DNA of 64,000 nucleotides from a virus (IMGVR_UViG_3300044681_000369:1-64000); one strand, 5' to 3'; positions 3,071 to 10,275 are shown, counted from the stretch's first letter. The notes: generated by a model from the letters alone, not told the origin. Numbers and translations: made by a program.

Positions 3071-3531
3071 TACATGTAATCCCCGGGATTTCTAACGATG
3101 TGATCTGCCGCATTCGTTGCGGCAAAAGCAAATGGTTTAATTTTAGCTTCGACTCCAGTCATACCTCTAACGTATCCTAGGGCTTCTTTCACTGCGCTAT
3201 TACTTTTATACACCGGATTAGGATTGATGTCAAGATGTATTTCAAACTTTCTTTCACCTATGGCATCAATGACTTCTAGTGCCGCCTGAATTGCATATCC
3301 AGCCTCAGATATTAGTCGCTGTCTAAGATTTCCAAAGTCACGCTCTTCATACTTTTGTTGGAAAATTTTGCAACCATGTTTGCTGGCTTTATGCAGAATG
3401 ATAACAACAGAATATCTTGCAACCCATTCGCCCTTCTTGTTTTTGAGACGAATTGAGTCTGCGCCAATATAGACGGTAGAATCTAAGGATGAGTTACTGA
3501 TTGCACTTCTGGCTTCATCAAACATAATCAA
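3070..3531 (-). CDS. RNase H-like YkuK (DUF458) family protein
   Basis: YIGADS, IHLDIN, AATNAADH. Confidence 0.75.
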   Translation of the reverse strand: MIMFDEARSAISNSSLDSTVYIGADSIRLKNKKGEWVARYSVVIILHKASKHGCKIFQQKYEERDFGNLRQRLISEAGYAIQAALEVIDAIGERKFEIHLDINPNPVYKSNSAVKEALGYVRGMTGVEAKIKPFAFAATNAADHIVRNPGDYM

Positions 3532-4226
3532 AAATTTAATTGTTCATTGGGGTTAATATAGCTGTGTGAATATACAATATACTCTTTTAGTCCTACGGTG
3601 TCAAGTCTAATTTCCATTCTTCTTTTGGGAAGATACAAACATGTCTTTCCATATCTACTATCTATTAGAGGTAGATATGCGGCTCTATTATCGTAAACTA
3701 TCTCGGAATAAAATTGCTCTTCGGTAAGATCAGACGGAATGACCTTAAGTAGACAATAGTGTACATTGTCTCGGTTCTTTTCTCTGATTGCCGCAAATAG
3801 ATGTAGATTGTTTGTCTTTGAAATCTTTTCTTTCCAAACATCGACAAACATATCTTTTATGTTTTCATTATTTTTGTTGTGAAAATGTGTTGCCACAAAA
3901 TCACTCTCACGTTTATTGTTTTGTAGAAAGCTGGCTTCTGTTGTTAAGCCTTTGAGGAAGATATCTCCAACACTCAATCCCTTAACATCAATATCACAAG
4001 TTGGAGTTCGAACGTCAACAATACCATGTCCTGCGCCAACCCACATGCCACCGGGAATACTGTCTGAGACTGCATATTCCCAAGTCTCTTTCGCTAACTG
4101 AATTTTACGATTTTTGGAAAGAAACGGCTGATAGTAAGCCGACATTTCCGCAGAGAATTTCTCGTTGAAGTTGGAGCCCAGAATGCTTTCGTGGTATTCT
4201 TTGGGAACAGGCTCAAACTTCAACAT
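3528..4226 (-). CDS. Hypothetical protein, restriction-endonuclease-like
   Basis: E...VD...IDVK spacing resembles PD-(D/E)xK. Confidence 0.45.
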   Translation of the reverse strand: MLKFEPVPKEYHESILGSNFNEKFSAEMSAYYQPFLSKNRKIQLAKETWEYAVSDSIPGGMWVGAGHGIVDVRTPTCDIDVKGLSVGDIFLKGLTTEASFLQNNKRESDFVATHFHNKNNENIKDMFVDVWKEKISKTNNLHLFAAIREKNRDNVHYCLLKVIPSDLTEEQFYSEIVYDNRAAYLPLIDSRYGKTCLYLPKRRMEIRLDTVGLKEYIVYSHSYINPNEQLNF

Positions 4227-4250
4227 GTAATATCATCCTAAATCATAATA

Positions 4251-4327
4251 TGGTCGGGGAGAGAGGATTCGAACCTCCGACCCCCTGCTCCCAAAGCAGG
4301 TGCACTACCAGGCTGTGCTACTCCCCG
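4251..4327 (-). tRNA. tRNA-Pro(UGG)
   Basis: CGGGGAG start, TT-TGG-GA loop, CCA. Confidence 0.95.
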
Positions 4328-4684
4328 TTACTCGGTAGGTGGAACTGGAGGAACGGCAGGAGGAAACATCTGCATCCATCTAGTCATCATCCAAGGTGGA
4401 CAATCATTACCCTGTAGGGTATAAAAGTCGTTGACAGTAACTTCTGTCTGAGACATCAAATCAAAGTGTGTAACTTCTAGAATATTCGTGGCATTATCCG
4501 AGGCAATCCAAGCAACACATTGCGCTTCGGTTTCCCAAAGAATATATGTGGTTGTGGGATCTGCCGGACACCAGCCTAGAAAACCAGATTGACTGCGTAG
4601 AGTCTCAATCTTAACTTTCAAATCTTCTACGCTAAGGTTCAATTGCGCATCGGGATTAATTGTGTATTTGCAAACATGCGACAT
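4328..4684 (-). CDS. Hypothetical protein (weak dimeric alpha-beta barrel/ABM-like pattern)
   Basis: GGAG RBS, late promoter upstream; GFLGW...WETE pattern. Confidence 0.55.
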
Positions 4685-4723
4685 TTTTATTCTCCATAGA
4701 GGTTTTGCTTAATCTCTTACCAC

Positions 4724-4731
4724 TATTTATA
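4724..4731 (-). promoter_or_regulatory. T4-type late promoter
   Basis: Intergenic TATAAATA. Confidence 0.75.
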
Positions 4732-4736
4732 TACTT

Positions 4737-4819
4737 TGGTGCCCCAGGAGGGACTCGAACCCCCACTCTCTCGAACTTGCTCCTAAGGCAAGCGTGTCTA
4801 CCAATTCCACCACTAGGGC
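4737..4819 (-). tRNA. tRNA-Leu(UAG)
   Basis: CT-TAG-GA loop, variable arm, CCA. Confidence 0.93.
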
Positions 4820-4823
4820 AATC

Positions 4824-5354
4824 TTAACTCTGTGTCAACTCTTTCCATTCTTTTGGACTAATAACACTGCAATTTTCTCTGAAATACCGATACTGTGTTA
4901 GTTCTGTCCGTATTTTAGGATCCATAGGAACCTGGTCTTCTGTGACGTTGCTACTGTTTGTGACTTGAGTTGCTTTTGCTACCTGCAAATATTCATTCAA
5001 GTTCTCAAACGGAATAATTTCAAAATCTAAATCCTTAGGTATATTAAATAGAAAGGCTTCCCTGTGCTTATGAATAAAAAGTTCTTTATCCATAAATTTT
5101 CTATCGGCAAATATATCTGCCCAACCTTTAGCTTCCCAGTCTACGTTTCGAAACACTTCAGCAGACATCCACCTGTCTAAAGGATTTCTTAAAACTAAAA
5201 CTCGTCTTGTCTTAGACTGAATCCAATCTATCCAATCATCACTTTTAGGTTTATGATCTGTAATACCAAAATGACTTTTCATAGACGTATGTCCACACCG
5301 TAAAGCACAGACAACATGAACTTTGCCATTATTGTGTATAAACATGATCCTCAA
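4824..5354 (-). CDS. Sulfotransferase family 2-like protein
   Basis: RCGHTS (5'-PSB-like) and VLRNPLDRWMS (3'-PB) motifs. Confidence 0.65.
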   Translation of the reverse strand: MRIMFIHNNGKVHVVCALRCGHTSMKSHFGITDHKPKSDDWIDWIQSKTRRVLVLRNPLDRWMSAEVFRNVDWEAKGWADIFADRKFMDKELFIHKHREAFLFNIPKDLDFEIIPFENLNEYLQVAKATQVTNSSNVTEDQVPMDPKIRTELTQYRYFRENCSVISPKEWKELTQS

Positions 5355-6444
5355 TTTCTTTGTTAGCTTTGCTCAAAGCACTACCTATAACCTGATGCAT
5401 ATCATAATACTGATACTCACCTAGTCTCCCACCAAAAATTATATTTGGATGCTGTTTGGCAAGTTCTGCATACTTTCTATACAACTCTTTGTTTCTATCA
5501 TTATTTATAGGGTAATAAGGATCTACTCCGCGTTTCCAATCTTGAGGATACTCTTTAGTTATTAAAGTTCCTTTTGTCTTGGCGCCTGTGAACCACTTAT
5601 GTTCCATAACTCTAGTATACGGATGATCGTCTGAGCAATAATTTACTATCGCTCGGTCTTGATACTCATCCACATCATGATCTTCGTGTTCAAATCTAAG
5701 GCTGCGGTATTCTAGTTCACCATAACAATAATTAAAGAATTGATCTATACCACCAGAAAACACAATTTTCTTTGCTTTTGGCTCAATAGAACTAACATTG
5801 TATTCTATTCCAAGTTGAATGTCAATACCTTCTAGCATCTTTTCGAAAAGTTTTGTATATCCAAATTTGGGTATACCCATAAACTTATGATCATCACCAA
5901 AATAGTTATCATTCCAATCGAACCGCAGAGGAAGTCTGCGAATTATAGATGCTGGTAAATCTTTAGGATCAGCATTCCACTGCTTTCTAGTATATTCCTT
6001 GATTAGCAGTTCATATATTTCTGTGCCTACCATCTGAATGGCTTGTTCTTCCAAATTTTTAGGCTTTCTGCCAAGATTTGGTCTTTGTGACTCAATCTTT
6101 GCTCTTGCCTCATCTGGGTCTGTTATTCCCCAAACCTCTTCAAAGGTGTGCATAGTAAATGGCATTGAATATAGAATGCCATCTGTTCCGTATGCCTTTA
6201 ACTTGTGTTCATACGGCAAAAAATCTGAAAATTTATTTACAAAATTCCAAATCTTTTCGCTGTTTGTGTGAAACATATGCGGTCCATAAACATGAACGTC
6301 TACACCATTTTTGTTTTCGGTGTATGCGTTTCCTCCTATATGGGTTCGCCTATCAATGACCAAGCAAGATTTTCCTGCGTCTGTCATCACTCTTGCGAAT
6401 GTGGCGCCGAAAAAGCCGGCGCCAACAATTAAATAGTCGTGCAT
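5329..6444 (-). CDS. glf: UDP-galactopyranose mutase
   Basis: VGAGFFG FAD motif, HIGGNAY, YGPHMFHT, GRLGEYQYYDM. Confidence 0.95.
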   Translation of the reverse strand: MHDYLIVGAGFFGATFARVMTDAGKSCLVIDRRTHIGGNAYTENKNGVDVHVYGPHMFHTNSEKIWNFVNKFSDFLPYEHKLKAYGTDGILYSMPFTMHTFEEVWGITDPDEARAKIESQRPNLGRKPKNLEEQAIQMVGTEIYELLIKEYTRKQWNADPKDLPASIIRRLPLRFDWNDNYFGDDHKFMGIPKFGYTKLFEKMLEGIDIQLGIEYNVSSIEPKAKKIVFSGGIDQFFNYCYGELEYRSLRFEHEDHDVDEYQDRAIVNYCSDDHPYTRVMEHKWFTGAKTKGTLITKEYPQDWKRGVDPYYPINNDRNKELYRKYAELAKQHPNIIFGGRLGEYQYYDMHQVIGSALSKANKEIEDHVYTQ

Positions 6445-6463
6445 ATGATCTCACTATGTAATA

Positions 6464-6680
6464 TGGCCCGCCCTATGCCCTCCGGCTTCCAGAAGACATT
6501 CATCTCGCTCTGATCGACGGGCAACCAGAGTCATATCCGCTTGTGCTAGCCGACATGCGCCCAAACGGAAAAAGGCATGTCGGACTCTGGCTAAGCAAGG
6601 GAGGTGCGATATTGAAAAGACCCCCACAATTTGTGCCTTGAATCCTTACCGGTACCGGCGGATTCTTCCAGAGATTTATC
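6464..6680 (-). ncRNA. Unclassified structured RNA ending in CCA
   Basis: GC-rich non-coding segment with at least five stems, between tRNA-Asn and glf. Confidence 0.65.
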
Positions 6681-6756
<76 letters not shown>

Positions 6757-6760
6757 AAAA

Positions 6761-6834
6761 TGGTGCCGGTTGAGAGAATCGAACTCCCATCAGAGGATTA
6801 CAAATCCACTGTATTACCATTATACTAAACCGGC
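6761..6834 (-). tRNA. tRNA-Thr(UGU)
   Basis: GCCGGTT/AACCGGC stem, TT-TGT-AA loop, CCA. Confidence 0.93.
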
Positions 6835-6844
6835 TTAGTCTTAT

Positions 6845-6873
6845 ACTTTATCAAGATTTATAACGGTTGTCAA
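6845..6873 (-). promoter_or_regulatory. Sigma70-type promoter heading the tRNA array
   Basis: TTGACA-N17-TAAAGT, 10 nt before tRNA-Thr. Confidence 0.7.
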
Positions 6874-7300
6874 GAACTTTTCTACCATAATCACAACAAA
6901 TTGCATAACAGTTATATGTCTTGCCATTAGGATAGTCTGGAATGACAATCACAGTGTTATCGGTATAATTTTCCTGATCTACTGTCCAAATATAATTTCG
7001 ACTTGTTATAACATATTCGTCAACGTTATGCCAGAAAAAATTATATGGACGATTTCGTTTTGACAGCCACTCAAGTGCGGCTAAATTTTTGGTATGAATC
7101 CAGAGTTTATCGTTATTCAGAAATGTTGAGTCGATAGGATAATCTGGACCATCGTGACCCAAATAAAACCGATCTGCAACTTTCCACAAATCAACTTCAA
7201 CATCAAAGCCTAAACTCAATGCCTCATTAATTTGATTTGGCGAATTTTCCCTGTCAATATCGGGTCCGTCAAGAAGACCACGGTGCGCTATGATTTTCAT
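6851..7300 (-). CDS. Short glycerophosphodiester phosphodiesterase-like protein
   Basis: IAHRG, ENS, EVDL, LGHD. Confidence 0.75.
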   Translation of the reverse strand: MKIIAHRGLLDGPDIDRENSPNQINEALSLGFDVEVDLWKVADRFYLGHDGPDYPIDSTFLNNDKLWIHTKNLAALEWLSKRNRPYNFFWHNVDEYVITSRNYIWTVDQENYTDNTVIVIPDYPNGKTYNCYAICCDYGRKVLDNRYKS

Positions 7301-7991
7301 CGTTAAAATGCCTCAAATCTTCTGGTGTACCCAATCCCCACATTCTCGCAATCTCATATGTGCCAATCCTAAAATTATCAGCAATGGCTTCGTTGAATAC
7401 AGGGCAAACATAAAACTCATTGTTAACTCGTACATCTTTGGCAATCATCTGCCTAGCATACTTAACGTAGTCACTGCCTCTTTGCCAGTAATAGATGCCA
7501 ACTGTAGCATTATCACTGATAGGATTCTTTTCGGCAACTTGAACTACTAATCCATCCTCATTAGTCTTCGCATAACTCCATTTAGTTTCAGTTGCCTTAA
7601 ACGTCATGATGTTTCCATCATACCAATGACTACTATCGATAAAGTCTTTGACGCTACCCTCAACATATTGATCTGAGTTTGCTATCAACAAAGGCTGATC
7701 GTTGTCAATGTAGTCGGCTGCCAGAAGTGTGGTACATGCCGCACCTTCTGTCATGTAATCAATATCTATAATAGTACACCCTGGAGCGGCAGAAGTCAAG
7801 ATATTTTTTAAATCATATTTTTCCAGGTGACTCTTTTGGACGATAAAAATATAGTTCCCAGCTATTCCCAAGTTGTCAATGACAACCTCAATCATACGCT
7901 TACCGAATATCGGTATAAGCGGTTTAGGATCAGAGTATCCAGCTTGAGCAAACCTGCTTCCTAAGCCAGACATGGGAATTAATATATTCAT
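7269..7991 (-). CDS. Sugar-nucleotidyltransferase (capsule BcbE-like)
   Basis: IPMSGLGSRF...PKPLI, NSDQ, GLGTPEDL. Confidence 0.85.
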   Translation of the reverse strand: MNILIPMSGLGSRFAQAGYSDPKPLIPIFGKRMIEVVIDNLGIAGNYIFIVQKSHLEKYDLKNILTSAAPGCTIIDIDYMTEGAACTTLLAADYIDNDQPLLIANSDQYVEGSVKDFIDSSHWYDGNIMTFKATETKWSYAKTNEDGLVVQVAEKNPISDNATVGIYYWQRGSDYVKYARQMIAKDVRVNNEFYVCPVFNEAIADNFRIGTYEIARMWGLGTPEDLRHFNDENHSAPWSS

Positions 7992-9574
7992 ACTCTAGTC
8001 AAATCTTCTGCTCGGGTTATTAATAGTTCTTGATTTATAGGTAAAAAGCCAGCAATATATTTAAATATTAATGTTTCGGTAATATCTTTCGGGCTTTTAA
8101 CTCGTATTGCATTTGCATCAGTATTTATTGCTGAATGCCATCCAGTATCACTATCTTCAAAAATAATAGTTTTTCTAGGCTCATACTTTAGTTTATCGAT
8201 AATGTACTTATACATGTCTGGAGAAGGTTTGGGTTTAAGTCCGTCTTCGTTGCAAACGTATTCATCGATAAGTTCCAATAGCCCAAGTTTTTCCAATAGT
8301 AATAACGTTGTGCTTCTAATGCAATTTGTGACAACAACTATTTTGTTGCCTTCACCAGATTTTATGGATTTAAATACAGCTTGTAAGTTTTCATCTATGC
8401 TAACAGCAGTCTCAATCCTATCTCTTGTGAACTGTTGTTTTCTAGCATTAATCATTTCGAAATGTTCTCTCGACAGACCCTTTTCTACGCTTAACCTTTC
8501 TAATTTTTGTTTTGTAGAAGTACCTTCGTATTGCAGTCTTTCTTCAGGAGTAATAACATATTCTTTTCCTACCGTACAACTAATTGCATCATTAAGAGCA
8601 TCATAATGAAGGTCCATTGTATCAACTAAAGTTCCATCAAGATCAAATGCAAACAAATGATTTTTTATGTCTATACGAGTTCTCAATTTGTCCAAAGGTA
8701 ATCCTCTATTTCTGCATTTTACCCAAATGCCCCATTTTCTATTAACATCTGCAAATGTTTCGTTATGATTTGCTGGAAACCGGTTTATTTGTGGATGTGC
8801 TATTCTTTTTGTTCGTTGATCTTTCCAAGTAACATTTACATACTCATTGAAGTGGTCTAACTCAACTAAACCGGGAAACTCTACACACTTAAAATTTCCT
8901 TTTTGAGTTGCTTCTCCTAACCAACCATGCCAATTATATCGTTTTGATGTATCGGTGTTTATCCAATAAGTATGTAGATGATCGAAGTATTTCTTTATCG
9001 TGTCCGATGAAGCAAAAAAGAAAACGTCAGTTAAGAAACCACTTTCTCTAAATGGTCTTCTCTCATATACACCTATAAGATTTTTGTTTATAAAATTTTT
9101 GACAGCTTGCGGGCAAAACGTAAAACCGGAATCAGGAAAAAACAAATCTGGTCTTAGCATGAAAACATAGTCAAACTTGCCATGTTCCTTTTCAAGTTCT
9201 CGTAGATATTCGATTGCGAGTTTCCAAGATACCATAATTGGAGGTAATTGCTTTTTGCCGCCATCAACTGCATATTTTTTTGCGTATTTTGATAAATCGG
9301 ATCTTGACTGCATTCGAATGTGAAGTGGCAGATTGATATTGTGGTCAAGAAAAACTTTTTGTATATCAGACTTGGCAATCGGAAATGTTTCCCAATTAGG
9401 TTGCAATGCCAGACCAGAAATAGGATTAGCAGTTGTTGTCTCATTCCAGGTACTGAAAGCAATAGAGACATCAAAGTGTGTTGTTGCTAGAAAAGGAAAA
9501 TGCGACTTTAGGCAATACTCAAAGGTTCGGTATTCTCCGTTATATAATATCAGAACTTTTTGCTTATTGATCAT
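7988..9574 (-). CDS. Putative glycosyltransferase-like domain fused to HAD phosphatase
   Basis: N-terminal GEYRTF...RPDL...DVFF; C-terminal FDLDGTL, KPKPSP, FEDS. Confidence 0.75.
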   Translation of the reverse strand: MINKQKVLILYNGEYRTFEYCLKSHFPFLATTHFDVSIAFSTWNETTTANPISGLALQPNWETFPIAKSDIQKVFLDHNINLPLHIRMQSRSDLSKYAKKYAVDGGKKQLPPIMVSWKLAIEYLRELEKEHGKFDYVFMLRPDLFFPDSGFTFCPQAVKNFINKNLIGVYERRPFRESGFLTDVFFFASSDTIKKYFDHLHTYWINTDTSKRYNWHGWLGEATQKGNFKCVEFPGLVELDHFNEYVNVTWKDQRTKRIAHPQINRFPANHNETFADVNRKWGIWVKCRNRGLPLDKLRTRIDIKNHLFAFDLDGTLVDTMDLHYDALNDAISCTVGKEYVITPEERLQYEGTSTKQKLERLSVEKGLSREHFEMINARKQQFTRDRIETAVSIDENLQAVFKSIKSGEGNKIVVVTNCIRSTTLLLLEKLGLLELIDEYVCNEDGLKPKPSPDMYKYIIDKLKYEPRKTIIFEDSDTGWHSAINTDANAIRVKSPKDITETLIFKYIAGFLPINQELLITRAEDLTRV

Positions 9575-10275
9575 TTTGGTCTTCTTATTTCAATGCTGTT
9601 GCTTGAGACAATCTTGTCGAAATGCACCTGTTTATATTTAAACTCGTTCTTTATCCACCAGTGCCATTCCGCACCAAGTCTTTCATTAATAGTGTTTTTA
9701 TCATATTCTGTATAATAATGTTCAATTTGATTATATATTTCTTTTGACTTTCCAAAAAAATAATAATCTTGTAGAGTGTTCTCATAGTCTGGCGCAGTGG
9801 GCAGTATATTAAACAAATGTGTTAACATTTCATCATCGGACAAATATTTTAAATTGGCTTCAACATTAAACTGCAAATCAGGACGAGTTAAGAATATATA
9901 GTCGTACTGTTTGGGTAAACTTTTCGCAAAATCAATAGCAAGTTTCCATGAAATCATTAGAGGAAACAGATTATATTTTTTTGGCGTATCGTAGTCATGA
10001 ATTGCCACTCTTAGCGGTAAATCAAAAAAATTTGCCTTAAATGCATCTCTTATTCTTTGCTCACTTACTGGCGATAATGGCAGTTCTCTCGTAACCGCAG
10101 GTCGCCTAATCCTATGATTATGCGTCTTAGTTTTATTCCAAGTAGAAAATGCAACCTCAACATCAAACAAAGGTGTGTTTAAAAAGTTATGTGTACATAG
10201 ACACTCTTCAAACGTTCTATACTCTCCATAGTAAAGAACAAGAAGACTTGGCTTATTGTGGTCTGTATGGATCAT
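9571..10275 (-). CDS. Putative glycosyltransferase-like protein, paralog of the N-domain of 7988-9574
   Basis: Shared GEYRTFE, AFSTWN, SWKLAI, RPDL blocks. Confidence 0.65.
   Translation of the reverse strand: MIHTDHNKPSLLVLYYGEYRTFEECLCTHNFLNTPLFDVEVAFSTWNKTKTHNHRIRRPAVTRELPLSPVSEQRIRDAFKANFFDLPLRVAIHDYDTPKKYNLFPLMISWKLAIDFAKSLPKQYDYIFLTRPDLQFNVEANLKYLSDDEMLTHLFNILPTAPDYENTLQDYYFFGKSKEIYNQIEHYYTEYDKNTINERLGAEWHWWIKNEFKYKQVHFDKIVSSNSIEIRRPK

Follow-up and report, generated by a model that had tools for sequence, protein, structure and literature searches.

Directly behind tRNA-Asn in the tRNA operon of a T4-type phage lies X, a folded RNA about 210 bases long that is real, conserved and listed in no RNA catalogue. 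The reading we prefer, though tentatively, is that X is a stable passenger RNA of the tRNA operon in T4-like aquatic myoviruses, released by the nucleases that process the tRNAs, in the manner of T4 RNA C/D, GOLLD or manA.

The window is the whole stretch of DNA that was analysed, 64,000 nucleotides in length. It comes from the start of a 141-kb IMG/VR record (G000, estimated to be 86% complete), of which it covers the first 64 kb. The phage is a T4-type myovirus with a family-B DNA polymerase and gp41-, gp46-, gp23- and CobS/CobT-like genes, and in the major capsid protein it shares 66-68% identity with Methylophilales phage Melnitz and the Pelagibacter phages HTVC008M and Mosig.

The gap behind tRNA-Asn

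X follows two tRNA genes and precedes glf, in this order:

6845..6873, minus strand: sigma-70-like promoter (TTGACA, 17 nt, TAAAGT, with TG), called by consensus match only
6761..6834, minus strand: tRNA-Thr(UGU), found by ARAGORN and Rfam
6681..6756, minus strand: tRNA-Asn(GUU), CCA encoded, the 5' neighbour of X in both phages that carry it
6674..6680, minus strand: A/U-rich 7-nt spacer GAUAAAU (homologue: UUUUAGA), read from the sequence
6464..6673, minus strand: structured RNA X, about 210 nt, two domains (folding, covariance models, comparison)
5329..6444, minus strand: glf (UDP-galactopyranose mutase; Pfam GLF, E 2e-74), start 19 nt past X

The promoter-like site just upstream of tRNA-Thr is the likely start of a transcript that covers tRNA-Thr, tRNA-Asn, X and glf. 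The spacer at 6674..6680 has a putative role in processing, as an entry site for an endonuclease.

The gene-free gap at 6445-6680 is 236 nt long, has a GC content of 52% and contains no credible gene. In the genome's remaining gaps the GC content lies at 29-38% (0.29-0.38), save for one 209-nt gap outside the window. With minus-strand ORFs of at least 45 aa and tRNAs masked, the coding-strand gaps of at least 120 nt in the window are this one, the contig end and one of 122 nt, with no others. A sequence-only reading of the window had singled out a long, GC-rich, non-coding stretch that starts directly after the tRNA-Asn CCA and itself ends in CCA, and each of these points held. The gap is the only one of such size in the window and begins at the next base after the tRNA (6680), and X ends GGGCGGGCCA at 6464, an ending that describes the gene sequence and not a mapped RNA end. 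The other GC-rich gene-free gap of the coding strand, outside the window at G000:115153-115361 (209 nt, 49% GC), matched neither Rfam (at E ≤ 0.01) nor the models of X.

X is non-coding by composition and without protein relatives. A 57-codon frame that opens from a GTG in the gap would yield a product rich in Arg, Ala and Cys; it was rejected as a gene, having no relative among 5.8 billion protein clusters.

Over 6464-6680, ARAGORN and the Rfam tRNA and tmRNA models are blank, in agreement with the earlier view that X is neither a tRNA nor a tmRNA. The Rfam search proposed at that stage returned no family, at gathering score or at E ≤ 10. A loose resemblance to c-di-GMP-I riboswitches (RF01051) had also been suggested and was not borne out, there being no such Rfam hit at E ≤ 10 in 6350-6800. 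Likewise, wcaG RNA (RF01761) had no match in the window at gathering score or E ≤ 10. manA RNA (RF01745) was matched neither in the window nor in the whole genome, by the same method that finds manA beside the homologue of X, and X did not match the manA model in either phage. A CRISPR-repeat-like Rfam hit on the opposite strand, with an E value of 1.1, was treated as noise.

A second copy and the shared fold

One true homologue of X was found, at about 6638-6848 of L217, a 25-kb IMG/VR contig, via a 16-mer from an internal loop in the 3' part. L217 is a fragment of a distantly related T4-like phage with 15 tRNAs, and its proteins are 45-77% identical to their orthologues in the window. A model made from the window alone finds the L217 copy at full length with 75 bits, and a model made from the L217 copy alone finds the window in return with 88.6 bits. 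The L217 copy starts directly past tRNA-Asn(GUU) (L217 6565-6639), which itself stands behind tRNA-Leu(UAA). Both copies start 7-8 nt past the tRNA-Asn CCA and end GGGCGGGCCA, after which comes an A/U-rich stretch. Reciprocal full-length match, the same 5' neighbour and compensated helices, the marks by which a new family is recognised, are thus found together in the window and L217.

Comparison of the two copies gives the following features:

6585..6673, minus strand: 5' domain, P1 closing P2 and P3
6668-6673 with 6585-6590, minus strand: P1, CUCUGG/CCAGAG against UGCGGG/CCCGCA in the homologue, three double changes
6640..6665, minus strand: P2 hairpin, sequence wholly different and shape the same, six double changes
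6593..6638, minus strand: P3 (AGGCA/UGCUU, invariant)
6620-6623 with 6602-6605, minus strand: P3a, inside P3, one compensatory pair
6536..6569 (6563-69 with 6536-42), minus strand: P4 with a small inner stem, 3-4 double changes
6508..6530, minus strand: P5, conserved 9-bp hairpin (CUCUGGUUG, loop CCCGU, CGAUCAGAG), two wobble-to-Watson-Crick changes and no double change
6500..6507, minus strand: strand joining P5 and P6, CGAGAUGA, invariant
6475..6499, minus strand: P6, hairpin of 11 bp, loop of 3 nt; one double change (U-A to G-C) and one wobble change (U-G to U-A)
6464..6474, minus strand: 3' tail AGGGCGGGCCA, invariant

The 3' domain consists of P4, P5, P6 and the tail. The strands of P4 read UCCGUUU/AAGCGGA in the window and UCCUAUC/GAUAGGA in the homologue. 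At the apex of P2, both copies have a perfect 10-nt palindrome, CCGGUACCGG at 6649-6658 and AGUUGCAACU in L217. The P5 loop CCCGU is complementary to GCGGG of the 3' tail, and weak pairing of the tail is possible at 6574-6579 (P7), at the P5 loop or at 6516-6522; as a long-range helix P7 is weak, with only 79% of its cells paired.

In a model-fitted alignment of the two sequences, 95.5% of the cells in helices pair, and at 15 pairs both partners have changed, counts that are inflated in that there are two sequences only, with the structure taken from one and the alignment fitted to it. None of 500 shuffles reached these values, and controls in which the partner strand was slid by 1-3 columns gave 34-45% pairing and 0-2 double changes. 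RNAalifold recovered the same helices. Judged from these comparisons, X has a two-domain fold that appears to have been kept through compensatory changes.

Folding energies add detail. The minus strand of the stretch reaches -83.9 kcal/mol (z -2.3; two of 200 shuffles do equally well), compared with a z of -1.6 for the plus strand. Among sub-regions, the central part (z -3.5) and the 3' part (z -2.9) stand out, and the 5' third alone folds no better than shuffles. The minimum-energy fold of the L217 copy is the conserved structure (z -2.9). That of the window differs from the conserved fold and is 5.5 kcal/mol better.

All stems listed in the sequence-only reading are present as complementarity, but the homologue supports just two of them, 6640-45/6660-65, which is P2, and the 11-bp stem 6475-85/6489-99, which is P6. 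The stem 6550-58/6575-83 is not one of these two. The 10-bp stem 6523-32/6583-92 belongs to the minimum-energy fold of the window and is impossible in the homologue, where changes in the upstream strand have abolished the complementarity. More mixed is the 7-bp stem 6466-72/6516-22, which can pair in both copies since the sequence is identical there, but which competes with conserved P5 and is part of the window's minimum-energy fold. In the window only, four segments (6668-6673 CUCUGG, 6585-6590 CCAGAG, 6525-6530 CUCUGG and 6508-6513 UCAGAG) can pair as 1:2 plus 3:4 or as 2:3. The 2:3 pairing is the energetically favoured form of the window and cannot form in the homologue. A pairing of an Asn codon or anticodon in the P3/P1 junction was considered and rejected, as it is not conserved between the two copies.

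Downstream of X, the two phages differ. In the window glf follows, and in L217 the order past X is a linker of about 95 nt, a manA RNA (RF01745, 96 nt past X, scoring 55.3 bits at a cut-off of 55.2, E 1e-13), a phrog_9155 ORF and peroxiredoxin. This arrangement bears on the idea that X is a cis leader, either riboswitch-like, as proposed for manA and wcaG, or a 5' stabiliser or processing insulator of the downstream mRNA. Its targets would be glf in the window and the manA-RNA/phrog_9155/peroxiredoxin unit in L217. The manA and wcaG RNAs lie in the 5' UTRs of sugar/exopolysaccharide genes in T4-like cyanophages (PMC2864571), glf lies close by on the same strand with no terminator between, and the exclusive pairings of the four segments in the window would suit an attenuator. 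We nevertheless consider a cis leader unlikely. The genes downstream are unrelated between the two phages, the 2:3 alternative is impossible in the homologue, and the conserved neighbour is the tRNA on the 5' side. No terminator-like site occurs between the tRNA-Thr promoter and glf, and no pairing of X with the glf ribosome site was seen, so that this site is not sequestered. Ten other glf loci, mostly viral, were compared (one further row duplicates the L003 contig), and leaders there are short or missing: in 8 of the 10 the gap to the upstream ORF is -14 to 23 nt, and in the remaining two, from metagenome contigs, it is 98 and 131 nt.

Because the downstream genes differ and the glf loci have a short leader or none, tRNA-Asn, and not the 3' gene, is the conserved partner of X. 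X appears from its gene order to travel with the tRNA array rather than with glf. The proposal that X regulates the glf-sulfotransferase genes in cis is accordingly disfavoured, the homologue having neither glf nor a sugar gene downstream, the glf loci having little leader or none, and terminator and ribosome-site pairing being absent. A glf riboswitch is unlikely, and the annotation is corrected: the tRNA operon has an RNA gene in the gap before glf.

Structured RNAs stand in series in the tRNA arrays of these phages, in L217 X, the linker and manA, the latter two at 6849-7115. The linker is GC-rich, has two hairpins and is 76% identical to G001:130661-130773, which comes after tRNA-Met in the closest relative of the window's phage. 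Beside the tRNA array of L217, at 3440-5485, is a gene for a 681-aa CHASE2/adenylate-guanylate cyclase protein (PF05226 and PF00211; phrog_35576), of which G001 has a 74%-identical copy at 108-2150.

Conservation is uneven along X. Between the window and L217, identity is 44% in the 5' domain, 45% in the centre and 88% in the 3' domain, and the adjacent tRNA-Asn is about 75% identical. Third codon positions of orthologues are 36-47% identical, or 44-50% where the codons encode the same residue. Since these third positions of real orthologues are only 44-50% identical, neutral sites are saturated, and the 88% identity of the 3' domain therefore points to constraint at the nucleotide level.

Constraint of this kind might come from a peptide as well as from an RNA, and the 3' domain does contain a short frame:

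6454..6534, minus strand: 26-codon frame in the 3' domain, 27 codons open in the homologue

The domain would then encode a peptide of 26-27 residues, MTL[V/I]ARRSERDECLLE[A/P]GGHRAG..., possibly as part of a dual-function RNA. We find this quite unlikely. The same AUG, inside GGAUAUGA, opens the frame in both phages, and three in-frame stops precede it in the homologue. By hand count, the first 23 codons have seven nucleotide differences, five of them synonymous third-position changes and two of them residue changes (V/I, A/P). However, no Shine-Dalgarno sequence stands at a usable distance, the AUG falls within the P4 helix, and its abundance of Arg, Gly, Ala and Cys sets the peptide apart from the proteins of the phage. 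The extended 57-aa frame is the one without a relative among the protein clusters, and the 5' domain has no shared frame. In same-residue codons, 16/21 third positions (76%) are identical, compared to the 44-50% of real orthologues, and coding alone therefore does not explain the conservation. P6 pairs third positions with third positions, so compensatory changes in the RNA look synonymous, and our own binomial estimate for the third-position bias is p ~0.1-0.3, allowing for three frames and the coupled pair.

The tRNA operon and its putative passengers

In the records searched, X is rare. Searches by blastn with the window and L217 copies against 50,697 phage records returned no relative, and an exact 18-mer and 16-mer from the central junction gave chance matches only in IMG/VR. 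In IMG/VR, the structure-aware pattern GATATGA, 8-10 nt, CCCGT, 8-10 nt, CGAGA picked up L217 and otherwise chance matches alone, and a stricter form of it gave only chance matches in 185,579 prokaryote genomes. No relative of X turned up in the neighbourhoods of glf homologues, and of homologues of the GDPD-like gene upstream, that were read in IMG/VR and metagenomes. Apart from these loci, Glf proteins 99% and 82% identical to the window's exist. Covariance models R1 and R3, the latter built from two sequences (window and L217), showed X to be absent from 93 other related phage records, including those of Melnitz, HTVC008M, Mosig and the closest relative; L217 itself, as positive control, was detected. 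Because it is missing from the closest relative and from these 93 records, X appears to be dispensable and rare.

Among complete IMG/VR genomes, G001 (171.6 kb, capsid 88% identical) is the closest relative, and its gene order agrees on either side of this region. Where the window has X, glf and a 176-aa ORF between tRNA-Thr/tRNA-Asn and tRNA-Leu(UAG), G001 has tRNA-Met, GOLLD and tRNA-Ala. The GOLLD RNA of G001 (L171 11244-11706, which is G001:131244-131706; RF02032) has tRNA-Lys(CUU) embedded in it at L171 11308-11379. GOLLD was not found in 27 other related records. Since G001 holds GOLLD at the corresponding place, between tRNA-Asn and tRNA-Leu(UAG), this slot of the array looks like a home for free-standing structured RNAs.

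The window also contains a glycan block (4824-10256: glf, a nucleotidyltransferase, a HAD-fusion protein, a GDPD-like gene and others) that is absent from G001, where the genes flanking it abut the tRNA array instead. The block is an insertion into a plastic tRNA region. Rearrangements that brought in the glycan genes could have left X behind as a functionless, decaying remnant, for example of GOLLD or of tRNAs. The slot is indeed hyperplastic, as G001 illustrates with its tRNA-Met, GOLLD and tRNA-Ala and no glycan island, and X is missing from nearly all relatives. Yet conservation extends over the full length of X despite saturated synonymous sites, with compensatory pairs and the highly identical 3' domain, and the genome is otherwise tightly packed, which makes a remnant highly improbable. 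Nor is there similarity to GOLLD. With a model of its conserved 3' half (416 positions, cut-off 150 bits), which scores 187 bits on the positive control in G001, the best score in the window's genome is 7.6 bits and lies elsewhere in the genome. Compared with the variable 5' half of the G001 locus, X has a Smith-Waterman score of 26 (shuffle mean 24.9), and a covariance-model search of X against that locus with filters off gave 6 bits at best. X as a GOLLD remnant was rejected, neither the model nor the locus being similar.

Several other features of these genomes deserve mention. At 1415-1508 on the minus strand, the window has a tRNA-Ile with anticodon UAU, 94 nt in length and with a long class-II extra arm (ARAGORN; Rfam tRNA 60.9 bits); such an arm is unusual for tRNA-Ile. 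A permuted tmRNA of alphaproteobacterial type (RF01849, 112 bits) is present outside the window at G000:119841-120216 (L247 9388-9729) and at G001:14720-15093, and the tags in the window's phage and G001 are ANDNEGYALAA and ANDNVAFAGYALAA. This form of tmRNA hints at an alphaproteobacterial host. Genes for tmRNA have already been reported for Melnitz-type phages (PMC9004378).

The fixed position of X, a few nucleotides past the tRNA CCA in both phages, might be taken to indicate a processing device for the 3' trailer of tRNA-Asn, either a self-cleaving ribozyme or a dedicated nuclease target, comparable to the theta ribozymes known beside phage tRNAs (PMC10879173). Theta ribozymes are minimal, however, and lie no more than 5 nt from the cleavage site (PMC10879173), and X has no match to the HDV family or to any Rfam ribozyme at E ≤ 10. 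Its plan is not the HDV-like nested double pseudoknot: the two strands of P1 are some 80 nt apart, enclosing a pair of hairpins and 70 nt. Other tRNAs in both arrays manage without such an element, and X, at about 210 nt and with its invariant distal 3' domain, is much larger than a trailer cutter has to be. We judge a processing device very unlikely.

The passenger RNA of the tRNA operon remains our preferred reading. Transcription from the promoter-like site at 6873-6845 would produce X together with the two tRNAs, tRNA-Thr and tRNA-Asn, and the host nucleases that mature tRNAs would free it at the A/U-rich spacers on both sides. Endonuclease cuts may be followed by 3' trimming that halts at the G+C-rich GGGCGGGCCA end. 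X would then persist as a compact two-domain particle, presumably stable, and could act in trans through its near-invariant 3' domain (P5, CGAGAUGA, P6 and the tail), with a conserved protein, an RNA or further copies of X as its partner. A stable RNA processed out like T4 RNA C/D had been one of the two roles proposed from the sequence. It fits best and is partly supported, in that the homologue is again 3' of tRNA-Asn and beside structured RNAs. Counter to this, the comparison covers two sequences, the minimum-energy fold of the window beats the conserved fold, X is missing from the relatives named above, the 19 nt between X and glf leave room for a role in cis, and a short frame is open in both copies.

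A passenger RNA could also assemble with itself. Because the apex is palindromic in both copies, the 4-nt P2 loops, GUAC and UGCA, are both self-complementary, and P2 might serve as a homodimeric kissing loop. The P5 loop CCCGU could, by pairing with GCGGG of the tail, link X molecules head to tail. We consider it unlikely that X self-associates in the manner of manA and GOLLD. If it did, the tRNA arrays of these phages would encode a set of RNA-only assemblies, of which X would be a new one.

Comparison with known phage RNAs

Phage tRNA clusters are emerging as nurseries of large folded RNAs. To these X, which the catalogues lack, adds a compact two-domain RNA with its own place behind tRNA-Asn and a near-invariant 3' half. 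X is a tractable object too, since 210 nt can be synthesised, probed and imaged.

T4 RNA C and RNA D have gone unexplained for 50 years. These RNAs (species 1 and 2; rnaC, rnaD) are stable non-tRNA RNAs in a tRNA cluster, a place like that of X. RNA D starts 1 nt past tRNA-Arg and ends ...GCGCACC, with RNA C directly after. By analogy, X and the T4 RNAs presumably share the same kind of place and the same biogenesis. RNA C has a tRNA-like T arm, whereas X has none, and relatives of rnaC and rnaD are confined to Tequatrovirus-like (T-even-like) phages of enterobacteria. The best local alignment of X with rnaC/rnaD is a shared 10-mer, UACCGGUAAG, which 25 of 500 shuffles match or beat; homology to RNA D through this 10-mer was set aside, as 5% of shuffles align as well. 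The function of the T4 RNAs is still unknown (PMC3014915).

Theta ribozymes share with X a position directly 3' of phage tRNAs (PMC10879173). They are minimal HDV-like nested double pseudoknots of gut phages that start no more than 5 nt from the tRNA end and have a catalytic C in J4/2 (PMC10879173). X is about 210 nt long, with another topology.

manA RNA (RF01745) is, like X, a structured RNA of T4-like aquatic phages, about 190 nt in length, and it adjoins X in L217. Long a riboswitch candidate near sugar genes (PMC2864571), it forms RNA-only cages according to a 2026 preprint (10.64898/2026.07.01.735769). The helix plans of the two differ, and the oligomers reported for manA are only a possibility for X.

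GOLLD (RF02032) is, like X, a phage RNA among tRNA genes, large where X is four times shorter. GOLLD and ROOL, too, are reported to form RNA-only cages (10.1101/2024.12.08.627333). In G001, GOLLD comes after tRNA-Thr, tRNA-Asn and tRNA-Met, in the slot that X, glf and the 176-aa ORF fill in the window.
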